Shown: piece after piece, positions 19,293 through 61,821 of the stretch | How the letters are laid out: each line of letters starts with the position of its first letter | Position numbering within the stretch: position 1 is the first letter of the stretch | From: Patescibacteria group bacterium | GTDB taxonomy: Bacteria; Patescibacteriota; UBA1384; XYA2-FULL-43-10; 1-14-0-10-43-13 | DNA: 64,000 nt | Reading direction: 5' to 3' | Assembly (NCBI GenBank): GCA_041666325.1 | Contig: JBAYHC010000004.1 | Location: 64,929 to 128,928, forward strand | Notes under the pieces: generated by a model | Database searches by the model: none | Seen by the model: the letters and a program-made list of their open reading frames with translations, nothing else | What the model was told of the DNA's origin: nothing | Made by a program: the position numbers and the translations under genes

Positions 19293-19437
19293 TAAAGGCA
19301 AAAGTTAGCAAGGCACCAGGCGAAAAAGATGCGGTCAAGAAAGAATGTGGTTCTCTTACGCCTTACGCCTTTCACACTTACGCCCGCCTGCATCGTCTGG
19401 AGCGAAGCGACTGCGGGCAGGCCTTACACCATTTATC
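19290..19437 (+). repeat. intergenic repeat element copy A (AGGCAAAAGTTAGCAAG ... hairpin CGCCCGCCTGCATCGYCTGGAGCGAAGCGACTGCGGGCAGGC ... ACACC) immediately upstream of pilC
   Basis: Near-identical 42-nt hairpin core also at 20697-20739 and 37956-37998; flanking modules are also shared. Confidence 0.6.
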
Positions 19438-20630: not shown

Positions 20631-20764
20631 GTTAGGCGAAAGTTAGCAAGACGAAAGTAAGACAAGTATCGATTCAAGCAGCAGCTCTGACACCTTGCGC
20701 CCGCCTGCATCGCCTGGAGCGAAGCGACTGCGGGCAGGCTTTTTACACCATTATTTGGAGACGT
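20631..20764 (+). repeat. intergenic repeat element copy B immediately upstream of pilM
   Basis: AGGCGAAAGTTAGCAAGACGAAAG ... GCGCCCGCCTGCATCGCCTGGAGCGAAGCGACTGCGGGCAGGC ... TTTTTACACC. Confidence 0.6.
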
Positions 20765-36420: not shown

Positions 36421-36494
36421 TCCGAGATCGTCTAGTGGCAGGACAGCGGATTCTGGCTCCGCTAACCTAGGTTCGAATCCTAGTCTCGGAACCA
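36421..36494 (+). tRNA. tRNA-Gln (anticodon CUG)
   Basis: Hand-folded: acceptor UCCGAGA/UCUCGGA, anticodon stem GCGGA/UCCGC with loop UUCUGGC, T-arm CUAGG-UUCGAAU-CCUAG, encoded ACCA. Confidence 0.8.
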
Positions 36495-36665
36495 AGAAAA
36501 GAGCTTTCATTGAGAGCTCTTTTCTTGGTTTGTAGGATTCGAACTGGGAAGGGGTCGGGAAACGGGAGTTTCCCGTGTCGGAAGGTTGGGAAACCGAGGG
36601 TTTCCCAAAGCGAGACGTAGAAGCGAGCGCTCGAGATCCTAGTCTCGGAACCAAGAAAAGCACTC
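36495..36665 (+). repeat. tRNA-Gln-linked repeat: terminator-like 16-bp hairpin, shared 31-nt GGGAAAC/GTTTCCC motif (antisense), then a direct duplicate of the tRNA 3' end plus a loop-flipped hairpin
   Basis: GA(A)TCCTAGTCTCGGAACCAAGAAAAG occurs at 36474-36499 and 36638-36665; the hairpin loops agctttcattgagagct and cactctcaatgaaagtg are near reverse complements. Confidence 0.6.
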
Positions 36666-37051
36666 TCAATGAAAGTGCTCTTCTTGGTTAATCAAGACTA
36701 CTCAAATTTGCTCGTATACGTATTTTAACTCGGCCCCAGGACTCAATAATTTCTCCATTTATTTAGTCCTATGAGAGCAATTTTTTTCAATTAAGCGTTT
36801 GGAATCTGCTTGTCTCCATAAATCCAAGCGGAACTCGCTGTAAGCTAGAGTTGGAGCCACAAGGACCTGTTCAAATACTTTTTCCTGAAGCGAGAGCGAG
36901 ATGATATCAGGCGAAAAACAGGAATTGTGAGGAGGAATAGCCAAAAGCTATTATGACAAGCAATTCGTGCTTTGCAGCCGAAATCAGCCGCTCACAGCTA
37001 TCGGACACAAGTGTTTGGGCAGGTCCCAATGCTCGGAAAGGAGGTGAGAAT

Positions 37052-37858
37052 ATGCAGATAAGACTGAGGACACGAATGACAATCTGGCTCATAGCAGCGA
37101 TAATTGCAGTTGGCGGATCAATAGGTCTCGGCTCTAATTCAGCTGAGGCGCACGACTGCGCTTGTAGCTGTGGGCAGCAGGTTCAAACCACAACAAAACG
37201 GGTTATCGCCGCACCTAAAAAATTCAGACACAGAAAGGTTGTTCATCAGGCCCCGATCGAGAAAAGAATTATAGTCAAAAAGGTTGTCGTCAAAGAAGTA
37301 GTTCATGAGCCGATTGAGAAAACCGTCATCGTGAAGGAGCCGGTGGTGCTGCGTGAAAGCATTGTCAATGAAGGACCAGTTGTTGTCGAAAAGAAGGTAA
37401 TCGTGAAGGAGCCGGTGGTGGTTAAAGAGCCAACCATTATCAAGGAAACAAAGGTGATTAAAGAACCCGTTATAATCAAAGAAAAAGTAGTAATCAAGGA
37501 GCCTGTTGTCGTCAAGGAAAAAGTAATTATCAAAGAACCGATAATAATCAAGAAGCCCATCATTATCAAAGAACCGGTCGTGATTAAGGAACCGGTAATA
37601 ATCAAAGAGCCGGTCATTATCAAACAACCAACCCCCGCTGTTCAACAGCCGATTCAGCACAACGAGATTACGGATATCGAGCGAACAACAATAAGAAGCG
37701 GTGACGACGTCAACGTTTCTACCCGCTCAGTCAACACGATCAATGCAAGAGGATCAAGTTTCAACCGAATCTACAACGCTGATCGTCAAAGTATTTCGGC
37801 CGATGGTGATGTTAGTGTTAGTAACACCAATATCAACACAATAAACGCAAGGTTCTAG
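37052..37858 (+). CDS. secreted repetitive protein with about 25 tandem hexapeptide (V/I)(V/I)(I/V)KEP repeats
   Basis: GGAGGTG RBS, then a signal peptide MQIRLRTRMTIWLIAAIIAVGGSIGLGSNSAEA, then repeats VIVKEPVVVKEPTIIKETKVIKEPVIIKEKVVIKEP... Confidence 0.6.
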   Translation: MQIRLRTRMTIWLIAAIIAVGGSIGLGSNSAEAHDCACSCGQQVQTTTKRVIAAPKKFRHRKVVHQAPIEKRIIVKKVVVKEVVHEPIEKTVIVKEPVVLRESIVNEGPVVVEKKVIVKEPVVVKEPTIIKETKVIKEPVIIKEKVVIKEPVVVKEKVIIKEPIIIKKPIIIKEPVVIKEPVIIKEPVIIKQPTPAVQQPIQHNEITDIERTTIRSGDDVNVSTRSVNTINARGSSFNRIYNADRQSISADGDVSVSNTNINTINARF

Positions 37859-37904: not shown

Positions 37905-38040
37905 GGTGTATAACTTAGGCAAAAGGCGAAAGGAAAGCAAATATATGGCCCTCTTGCGCCCGCATGCATCGCCTGGAGCGAAGCGACTGCGGGCAGGCCT
38001 CTCACACTTACGCCTAATATATGCTATAATCCCTCATATC
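37905..38040 (+). repeat. intergenic repeat element copy C immediately upstream of gmk
   Basis: AGGCAAAAGGCGAAAGG ... GCGCCCGCATGCATCGCCTGGAGCGAAGCGACTGCGGGCAGGC ... CACACTTACGCC, followed by an extended -10 TGCTATAAT. Confidence 0.6.
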
Positions 38041-61465: not shown

Positions 61466-61744
61466 TGGTACCCGCGACAGGACTTTCACGTCGCCCTGCT
61501 CCCTAGGAACCCACGGTTCCTAGTGTCCTCCCCTAGCGGGAAACTCCCGTTTCCCGACCCCTTCCCAGGTTCAAACTCTTCATCGCCAGAAAACAAAAAT
61601 CACCTTTCGGTGATAATATAGGCCCCTCGACAAGCTCGGGGTCATTCGACTTCATGCCACGAATAAACAAGAAGGCATTTTAAAATATGGCTTGCCATGA
61701 GCGAAATCCCGATTTATCGGGATGGAGTCGAATGGTACCCGCGA
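61466..61744. repeat. tRNA-Arg-linked repeat: 20-nt direct duplicate of the tRNA 3' end (61466-61485) and intervening hairpin-rich segment containing the shared 31-nt motif
   Basis: TGGTACCCGCGACAGGACTT occurs at 61466 and 61745; CGGGAAACTCCCGTTTCCCGACCCCTTCCCAG lies at about 61540-61575 in the same relative orientation as downstream of tRNA-Gln. Confidence 0.6.
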
Positions 61745-61821
61745 CAGGACTTGAACCTGTGACCTTCAGATCCGCAATCTGACGCTCTATCCAACTGAGC
61801 TACGCGGGCAGACATAGCAAG
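61745..61821 (-). tRNA. tRNA-Arg (anticodon GCG as parsed)
   Basis: Hand-folded: acceptor GCCCGCG/CGCGGGU, D-arm GCUC-AGUUGGAUA-GAGC, anticodon stem UCAGA/UCUGA with loop UUGCGGA, T-arm ACAGG-UUCAAGU-CCUGU, ACCA. Confidence 0.75.

Follow-up and report, generated by a model that had tools for sequence, protein, structure and literature searches.

Why a bacterial transfer RNA (tRNA) gene is followed, 159 nucleotides (nt) further on, by a second copy of its own 3' end, and what the short DNA between the two copies represents, are the questions raised by a locus in a Patescibacteria group bacterium (GenBank assembly GCA_041666325.1). The stretch analysed, here called the window, comprises 64,000 nt of contig JBAYHC010000004.1 (positions 64,929 to 128,928 of the forward strand), and the locus starts at its tRNA-Gln(CUG) gene. 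The region after this gene is probably a copy of a miniature, protein-less and non-autonomous structured insertion element, one that restores the gene it interrupts. Such an element resembles a small protein-less counterpart of the islands that integrate into tRNA genes, a likeness supported by the comparisons below. A preliminary description of the locus had wavered between a decayed or excised integrative element and a miniature tRNA-targeting repeat. The latter idea is supported and extended by a second exact core in the window, more than 100 copies elsewhere and presence/absence polymorphism.

The segments of the locus are collected in Table 1. Both ARAGORN and Rfam call the tRNA-Gln gene, and the hairpin reported directly after it, here named T1, is present as well; its arms, described earlier as perfect, include one G.T pair. 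A simple terminator scan did not call T1, which RNA and DNA folds agree in placing at the tip of a long hairpin formed by X, the tRNA end in use, and rc(X), its inverted copy. Folding the locus as either RNA or DNA gives this long X:rc(X) hairpin together with the hairpins P2 and P3 (z of about -8). The roughly 100 nt of GGGAAAC/GTTTCCC hairpins noted previously correspond to positions 36531–36635 (about 105 nt), which hold two hairpins of the GGGAAAC type. Furthermore, the downstream copy of the tRNA end, here named X' and reported as 19 nt, is exact for 18 nt, the 19th base being G against A in the tRNA. Exact identity between X and X' amounts to 25 nt when followed into the trailer, and the whole direct repeat covers 54 nt at 85% identity with the second hairpin included. 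Shuffled versions of the window never contained the 25-mer, or the 32-nt core, twice. The segment rc(X), which the preliminary description did not contain, ends 1 nt upstream of the core, and a covariance model of the family matches this copy at 36538–36609 with 90.2 bits. The right junction, CG(C/A)TCGAG followed by ATCCTAG, is also found in the tRNA-Gln copies L144, L150, L154, L157 and L163.

Table 1. Features of the two element copies in the window, with the evidence for each
Feature	Position	Strand	Evidence
tRNA-Gln(CUG), CCA encoded	36421..36494	+	ARAGORN and Rfam tRNA model, 61.5 bits
Putative inserted element, 159 nt: X, hairpin T1, rc(X), core, P3, variable right end	36477..36635	+	direct-repeat start-to-start spacing of 159 nt
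X, putative replacement 3' end, tRNA positions 59–76	36477..36494	+	exact direct repeat of 36636–36653
Hairpin T1, terminator-like A-tract/T-tract palindrome, 41 nt	36490..36530	+	inverted repeat, 20-nt arms, 95% complementary
rc(X), TAGGATTCGAAC, inverted copy of T-stem/T-loop	36533..36544	+	12-nt inverted repeat, 100% complementary to 36471–36482
Conserved core: J1 GGGAAGGGGTC, purine-rich joining strand, and hairpin P2	36546..36575	+	exact 32-nt copy at 61537–61568
Hairpin P2, CGGGAAAC-GGGA-GTTTCCCG	36556..36575	+	inner GGGAAAC-GGGA-GTTTCCC at 36557–36574
Hairpin P3, TTGGGAAACC-GAG-GGTTTCCCAA	36586..36608	+	inverted repeat; family-wide tip conserved, outer stem covaries
Variable right end (about 27 nt), finishing in GCGCTCGAG, a degenerate T-loop-like segment	36609..36635	+	junction common to other tRNA-Gln copies
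X' ATCCTAGTCTCGGAACCA, exact copy of tRNA positions 59–76	36636..36653	+	presumed displaced original 3' end
Hairpin T2, second 41-nt palindrome, terminator-like	36649..36689	+	goes with X' (36636..36689)
tRNA-Arg(GCG), host gene of second copy	61733..61809	-	ARAGORN and Rfam
Second element, 267 nt	61486..61752	-	repeat searches; covariance-model match 61501–61574, 86.1 bits
X of second element	61733..61752	-	
rc(X) of second element	61567..61575	-	
Core of second element	61537..61568	-	
P3 of second element	61505..61525	-	
X' of tRNA-Arg copy, 20-nt exact copy of tRNA-Arg 3' end	61466..61485	-	direct repeat, 100% identical

The 32-nt core recurs exactly, on the opposite strand, downstream of tRNA-Arg(GCG), and the covariance model finds exactly two copies when run over the 64-kb window. 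The two copies adjoin different tRNA genes, and the gene end that each of them bears is that of its neighbour. An unusually long spacer of about 150 nt (61586–61732, minus strand) separates tRNA-Arg from its element; it contains three hairpins, of which the one at 61599–61614 is terminator-like.

Searching for further core copies, as had been suggested, was productive outside the window too: an exact search of genome contigs with a core 18-mer (GGGAAGGGGTCGGGAAAC) returned at least 118 loci. In 108 of them the hairpin after the 18-mer is present, and these are taken as members of the family, whose counts rest on the matches listed. Among the ten 18-mer matches that are not followed by the hairpin are Actinobacteria and Acidobacteria records; the ten appear to be due to chance, except L028, which carries an insertion inside the P2 loop. 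The hosts of the 108 listed copies belong nearly all to the candidate phyla radiation (CPR), including Saccharibacteria, Paceibacteria/Parcubacteria, Moraniibacteriota, Berkelbacteria and others. In the window, too, the flanking DJ-1 protein is identical to that of a metagenome-assembled genome of the Patescibacteria group (CPR). Additionally, the covariance model detects divergent copies in the same 8-kb stretches, with three copies in L005. Across the family the element measures about 110–270 nt and encodes no protein. Its layout, in the orientation of the host gene, is X, spacer, rc(X), core (J1, P2 and J2), P3, variable hairpins and X'. The spacer often holds an A-tract/T-tract terminator hairpin, and copies with a short spacer have no terminator between the tRNA and the element.

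The choice of target is equally characteristic. A tRNA gene on the same strand lies just upstream of 79 of the 108 listed copies and one on the opposite strand of none; these hosts cover 19 amino-acid identities and 33 isoacceptors. The other host genes are rplL, rplK and rpsI, entered at their 3' ends, and the insertion lies within the last 18–30 nt or so of the host genes, which are highly conserved and highly expressed. X/X' identity starts at tRNA positions 57–60, in the T-loop, in 50 of 58 tRNA loci, with an overall spread from 53 to 65; the junction thus lies mostly in the 3' half of the T-loop, and the flanking repeat varies in length from 12 to 45 nt. It often reaches into the genomic trailer and is without CCA where CCA is not encoded; its template was therefore DNA or a primary transcript and not the mature tRNA. 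A retrovirus-like primer-binding site, which an 18-nt repeat equal to tRNA positions 59–76 might bring to mind, is ruled out by the same features, namely a repeat that runs 5–20 nt into the trailer, has CCA only if encoded and begins at a variable position.

The question of which tRNA end is the original one can be approached through alleles with and without the element. In one species, rplL genes for an identical L7/L12 protein occur as an empty allele (L123) and as filled alleles (L119 and L120), the latter being 191 nt longer. The empty gene ends with GCAGGAGGAAAGGTTGAGTTGAAGTAA, followed by TCTTCAACGATAC and a terminator. The filled genes end with GGCAGGTGGAAAAGTAGAATTAAAATAA, which encodes the same peptide and differs from the empty allele at seven positions, all of them synonymous. 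After this gene end come a different terminator, rc(X), the core, the variable part and, last, GGAGGAAAGGTTGAGTTGAAGTAATCTTCAACGATAC, as in the empty allele. As X' in L119 and L120 matches the end of the empty allele, X' is the displaced original, and the comparison of these sequences indicates that X came with the element from another lineage. In L128, whose L7/L12 protein is 95% identical, X' has gained a stop codon, as expected of a remnant. The downstream repeat had previously been regarded as the scar of an integration, and this polarity has to be reversed: the downstream copy would be the original, and the end in use would be borne by the element. A long target-site duplication or a local snap-back duplication is also ruled out, as X and X' of rplL differ synonymously and X' equals the empty allele. 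At another rplL locus (L015), three successive versions of the rplL 3' end are present with remnants in between, which indicate repeated insertion at one gene end.

The tRNA-Gln genes themselves were compared in 37 metagenome contigs that share an identical tRNA-Gln 3' end. A family element, recognised by the covariance model, stands directly after tRNA-Gln in five of the 37, four have other small inserts, and the remaining contigs have no insert there; L147, in the same set, may hold a decayed copy. The filled locus L144 is syntenic with the empty loci L140, L141 and L148, and the terminator after X' in L144 is the terminator that follows the tRNA in these three (95–97% identity). The alignment indicates the same polarity as in rplL, with X' and its terminator as the displaced original, and filled alleles differ from empty ones by the mini-element alone. 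By extension, the last 18 nt of tRNA-Gln in the window would be supplied by the element, and the limits given in Table 1 for the element and for the old gene end take their polarity from the empty and filled rplL and tRNA-Gln alleles. A fixed structure of the tRNA operon, be it a 3' trailer or a terminator, would agree with the A-tract/T-tract hairpins after both copies of the tRNA end. This reading is virtually untenable, with other copies beside unrelated genes, with the polymorphism just described, and with an element or another small insert in only these few of the 37 contigs. The preliminary description had itself set against its proposal a fixed arrangement with no other copies of the motif, and both polymorphism and other copies have been found.

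The other small inserts after the same tRNA-Gln (L134, L155, L164 and L161) show the order X, hairpin, inverted T-arm, X'. Their middle is much shorter or unrelated (for instance CTAGGATGAGAAGTTTACCCTACTTTAGAGGGAATCCTAG), and they may be deletion derivatives or sister families. In L160 (4465–4632), the tRNA-Gln 3' end is matched twice, at a distance of 143 nt; the second match apparently forms part of a tRNA-Gln-like gene whose 5' half carries some 45 nt of inserted sequence.

Where classical islands and prophages integrate, they typically give rise to direct repeats of a tRNA 3' end from the T-loop onward, and a decayed, integrase-bearing element of this type was the first explanation offered for the locus. 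The cognate integrase that it calls for was sought and not encountered. Open reading frames (ORFs) within 3 kb of the 108 listed copies, once clustered, contain no family in more than five loci and no integrase or enriched gene, and a Pfam scan of 30 window ORFs reveals no recombinase and no reverse transcriptase. No integrase was met inside the element either, where 159 and 267 nt leave no room for a gene. A larger parent element sharing the core or the ends was not present among the 108 listed loci, the core 18-mer had no match in viral contigs, and BLAST against phage and plasmid records gave no match. Moreover, elements that had decayed independently would not all have kept one covarying 70-nt core next to 33 different isoacceptors, size and core are conserved across copies, and the filled alleles bring no cargo beyond the mini-element. 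A decayed island is thus hardly credible. The polymorphism, the conservation of the core and the range of targets exclude both it and the fixed trailer.

Known RNA families do not account for the element. At the gathering threshold, Rfam 15, including its ribozymes, group I and II introns, transfer-messenger RNA (tmRNA) and RNase P RNA, matches only the four tRNAs of the window, and at E values up to 10 the element region gives nothing other than spurious microRNA-type hairpin matches far below threshold. A CsrA-type GGA loop, a hammerhead-like or hepatitis delta virus (HDV)-like core, a permuted or split tRNA, and a tmRNA or RNase P fragment were considered and dismissed, with no fit of motifs by inspection and no Rfam match. 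A G-quadruplex in GGGAAGGGGTCGGGAAACGGG was likewise rejected, its fourth G-run lying in the variable P2 loop (GGTA, GGAA, AGGA and others) and not being conserved. An own promoter was rejected too: one weak sigma-70-like match lies over T1 and rc(X) in the tRNA-Gln copy and is not conserved in the family. A literature search by keyword and sequence string found no relevant description, and the family is apparently undescribed so far.

The structure of the core was assessed on anchored sub-alignments, the variable region being misaligned in the full-length alignment. In P3, 99.2% of cells are paired and five of nine pairs are changed on both sides (a level reached in 0 of 500 shuffles), in a set that was chosen for having a hairpin and hence is partly circular in favour of the proposed structure. 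For P2 and P3 together, 103 model-aligned copies give 97.2% paired cells and 11 of 17 pairs changed on both sides (again 0 of 500 shuffles as high), in an alignment fitted to the covariance model, which favours the same structure. Variants of P2 such as GGGGAAC/GTTCCCC and GGGAAAA/TTTTCCC keep the pairing, and hairpin loops tolerate additional hairpins. Read from these alignments, selection acts on the pairing within P2 and P3. On the tRNA-sense strand, G.U outnumbers A.C by 27 to 6, an excess that points to RNA of the sense strand or to the top strand as single-stranded DNA.

The make-up of both covariation sets, which favours the proposed structure, weighs against the reading as an insertion element, and so do several further points. 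The rplL alleles give no clean crossover, the right junction being GCTGG versus GCAGG in the empty allele. The presence/absence comparison called for earlier succeeded for rplL and for related tRNA-Gln loci and failed for the locus in question: the empty-site junction of the window's own tRNA-Gln has no match in the metagenome collection, so that its polarity rests on analogy with related tRNA-Gln loci. The DJ-1 protein that flanks the element has only one relative of more than 60% identity, on a 914-nt contig, and close relatives of the source genome are too few for comparison. Copies on contigs labelled Bdellovibrionales, Gammaproteobacteria or Bacteriovorax (L023, L024, L025, L029, L033, L048 and L015) could reflect true spread beyond the CPR or mis-binning, and those with the first two labels are a further difficulty. 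A core conserved to such an extreme degree could also be a sign that a host function, and not mobility, maintains the element. In addition, the mechanism of movement is a matter of inference only, and retargeting to dozens of gene ends needs the joint replacement of X and rc(X), which is the main unexplained point.

The thought of a host function leads to an unlikely alternative, a small RNA gene that serves the host. Its product would be closed by a stem resembling the acceptor and T-stem of tRNA, made by read-through from a strongly expressed gene and trimmed by tRNA-processing enzymes, and the gene would spread only by homologous recombination after DNA uptake, with the tRNA as left arm and X' as right arm. 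Very strong conservation of the core with covariation and the G.U excess on the sense strand speak for it, as do the high expression of all host genes and the short-spacer copies without a terminator between tRNA and element. It also gains from the occurrence of tRNA-Thr(GGU) copies in several genomes with Moraniibacteriota or Parcubacteria labels (L012, L022, L070, L110 and L115) and from the type IV pilus proteins encoded in the window, a PilM-like protein and a T2SSE-family ATPase; type IV pili can serve DNA uptake. However, each of the 33 isoacceptors and three protein genes would need a matched X, rc(X) and X', which homologous recombination does not create. A terminator borne by the element often stands upstream of the core, presence/absence within a species makes the element dispensable, and Rfam offers no match.

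The inverted segment rc(X) is what ties the conserved core to each target. It mostly starts at tRNA position 53 (range about 50–54) and runs to positions 60–68; it is 9–21 nt in length, changes with the target, and its distance to the core is 0–1 nt in 33 of 51 loci. It is a true inverted copy, as the non-palindromic T-loops TTCAAGT and TTCGATC are flipped there. The complementarity of rc(X) is far greater to the upstream X than to X' in 63 of 66 loci; thus the built-in structure is a long hairpin of X, terminator and rc(X), and this X:rc(X) hairpin is a double-stranded replica of the target site. The same segment admits another interpretation, an RNA-guided homing element in which rc(X), directly 5' of the conserved scaffold, guides an effector encoded elsewhere to an unoccupied gene end. 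Both the target-dependent segment abutting the core and the selection on sense-strand structure agree with it. It is nevertheless quite improbable, with no linked effector gene and no Rfam family matched, with X, the complement of the guide, present in cis where it would mask the guide, and with known guide RNAs of such kind adjoining their protein gene. The readings as a host RNA and as an RNA guide are not mutually exclusive.

For the preferred reading, a mobile element that restores the interrupted gene, the following course can be proposed. X would be the element's own copy of the gene 3' end, often with a terminator, and would keep the interrupted gene intact, while the host's original end would be pushed downstream as X' and persist as a direct repeat. 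The moving form may be small and single-stranded, shaped as a circle or as a hairpin (dumbbell), and would consist of X, terminator, rc(X), core and variable part. Its target replica might pair or exchange strands with the gene end on the chromosome and thereby bring about insertion, much as folded single-stranded recombination sites do, and a single-strand exchange within X by such a circle or dumbbell would yield exactly the order of segments seen. An enzyme encoded elsewhere would use the conserved core as a handle, or else the core would be an active RNA. A bolder version, which may be entertained only tentatively, dispenses with a dedicated enzyme altogether. Here, a self-sufficient nucleic-acid parasite, a structured RNA or single-stranded DNA of about 150 nt, would find gene ends through its target replica or guide, insert by its own catalysis or by general host enzymes only, and patch the interrupted gene; it would be protein-less, reprogrammable and specific to ultra-small bacteria.

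The long palindrome also bears on the inverted loops of the two hairpins reported previously. The central 13 nt of the second hairpin (CTCTCAATGAAAG) are indeed the exact reverse complement of the centre of the first. The two 41-nt palindromes are 88% complementary versus about 80% directly identical, and the flip depends on few asymmetric positions, namely the base of the loop and one or two pairs that are wobbles or mismatches. Such an inversion of the tip is plausible in view of the long palindrome that X, terminator and rc(X) make up. Across 60 loci, the sequences after X and after X' are no closer in reverse-complement than in direct orientation; the flip is therefore not a family trait, and little weight is given to it.

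Among known systems, the closest parallel is found in islands and prophages with tyrosine integrases. Those of the T-loop sublocation class enter the 3' part of tRNA genes, bring a replacement end and leave a direct repeat. The element shares with them the T-loop junction, the replacement 3' end, the intact gene, the displaced end as direct repeat and the use of conserved gene ends as portable targets. Unlike them, it measures 110–270 nt instead of kilobases, has no integrase and no cargo, and possesses a covarying structured core and an inverted target copy. Its near-identical cores, moreover, stand at no fewer than 33 isoacceptors and at the 3' ends of protein-coding genes.

A second parallel concerns folded single-stranded sites. 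In integron attC and in attP(+) of phage CTX, a hairpin of one strand rebuilds the double-stranded recombination partner. The X:rc(X) hairpin replicates the target duplex in a comparable way and, by analogy, may have a similar role in recombination, whereas its paired region is the variable, target-specific part and not a conserved recombinase site. No attC R or L boxes and no dif-like motif were evident on reading the element sequence, and to our knowledge no dependence on IntI or Xer has been described for it. In being small and non-coding, in having several copies per genome and in presumably being moved by something encoded elsewhere, the element resembles miniature inverted-repeat transposable elements (MITEs) and cis-mobilizable elements (CIMEs), the latter being deletion derivatives of integrative conjugative elements that retain the att sites. 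It differs from MITEs in lacking terminal inverted repeats, its sole inverted repeat, X and rc(X), being internal and target-derived. There is also no short target-site duplication of fixed length, as the repeat is not a duplication and its rplL copies differ synonymously. It differs from CIMEs in that no autonomous parent element was found in the 108 listed loci, viral contigs, or phage and plasmid records.

Guide RNAs of mobile elements, such as the IS110 bridge RNA, the omega-RNA of IscB, the right-end RNA (reRNA) of TnpB and the tRNA-directed CRISPR RNA (crRNA) of type V-K CRISPR-associated transposons, also set a target-complementary segment against a conserved scaffold. The likeness is one of form only, and the element departs from these guides in having no adjacent effector gene and no Rfam match. 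The type V-K crRNA nonetheless offers a precedent for a guide that matches the tRNA gene beside the insertion site. The tigRNAs of TIGR-Tas systems have a target-complementary segment adjoining a conserved scaffold as well. TIGR loci are arrays of 36-nt units beside tas genes (PMC12045711), an architecture that the element does not have, and a relationship to TIGR-Tas was rejected for this difference.

If the preferred reading holds, very small mobile elements of an apparently overlooked class would be common in CPR/Patescibacteria genomes. They would land on the gene ends that are the most conserved in biology, repair the damage they do, and combine a strongly conserved structured core with a segment matching each target. 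The duplicated tRNA ends of CPR genomes would thereby be explained, and caution would be due in annotation, as a gene may be using an end of foreign origin and the repeats yield spurious ORFs and pseudo-ends. The family is a candidate for a new mechanism of RNA- or structure-guided integration or for a new widespread small RNA. As one scaffold occurs with dozens of target segments, it might attract interest for programmable insertion after its machinery has been identified.

Some elements carry further sequences of their own. Insertions of about 40–75 nt lie inside the element's own hairpin loops, in the P2 loop of L028 and in the P3 loop of L042, L054, L027, L060 and L081. They mostly share the motifs GCTTTAGCGAA(A/G)GG and GTAC(A/T)...TGT, the first being absent from L028, and they may be a second small structured module nested in the element. 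Additionally, a short GC-rich palindrome, CCTGCCTGCCGGCAGGCAGG or close variants of it, occurs in L014, L033 and L077, and a shorter form, CCTGCCGACAGGCAGG, in L075 (4732–4823). Its differing places within otherwise unrelated element copies suggest a tiny palindromic insertion.

In the neighbourhood of the tRNA-Gln copy, the ORF just downstream of the element (36953–37858, plus strand) encodes a 301-aa low-complexity protein with repeats of the KEPVV/IIKEP type and no Pfam match. A separate 55-nt repeat family, CTTGCGCCCGCCTGCATCGCCTGGAGCGAAGCGACTGCGGGCAGGC, has three copies in the window with 87–100% identity (19377–19431, 20694–20748 and 37953–38007, plus strand). Its GGAGCGAAGCGAC motif also recurs in the variable part of tRNA-linked elements, and the repeat adds spurious N-terminal extensions to the ORFs starting at 19345 and 37945.

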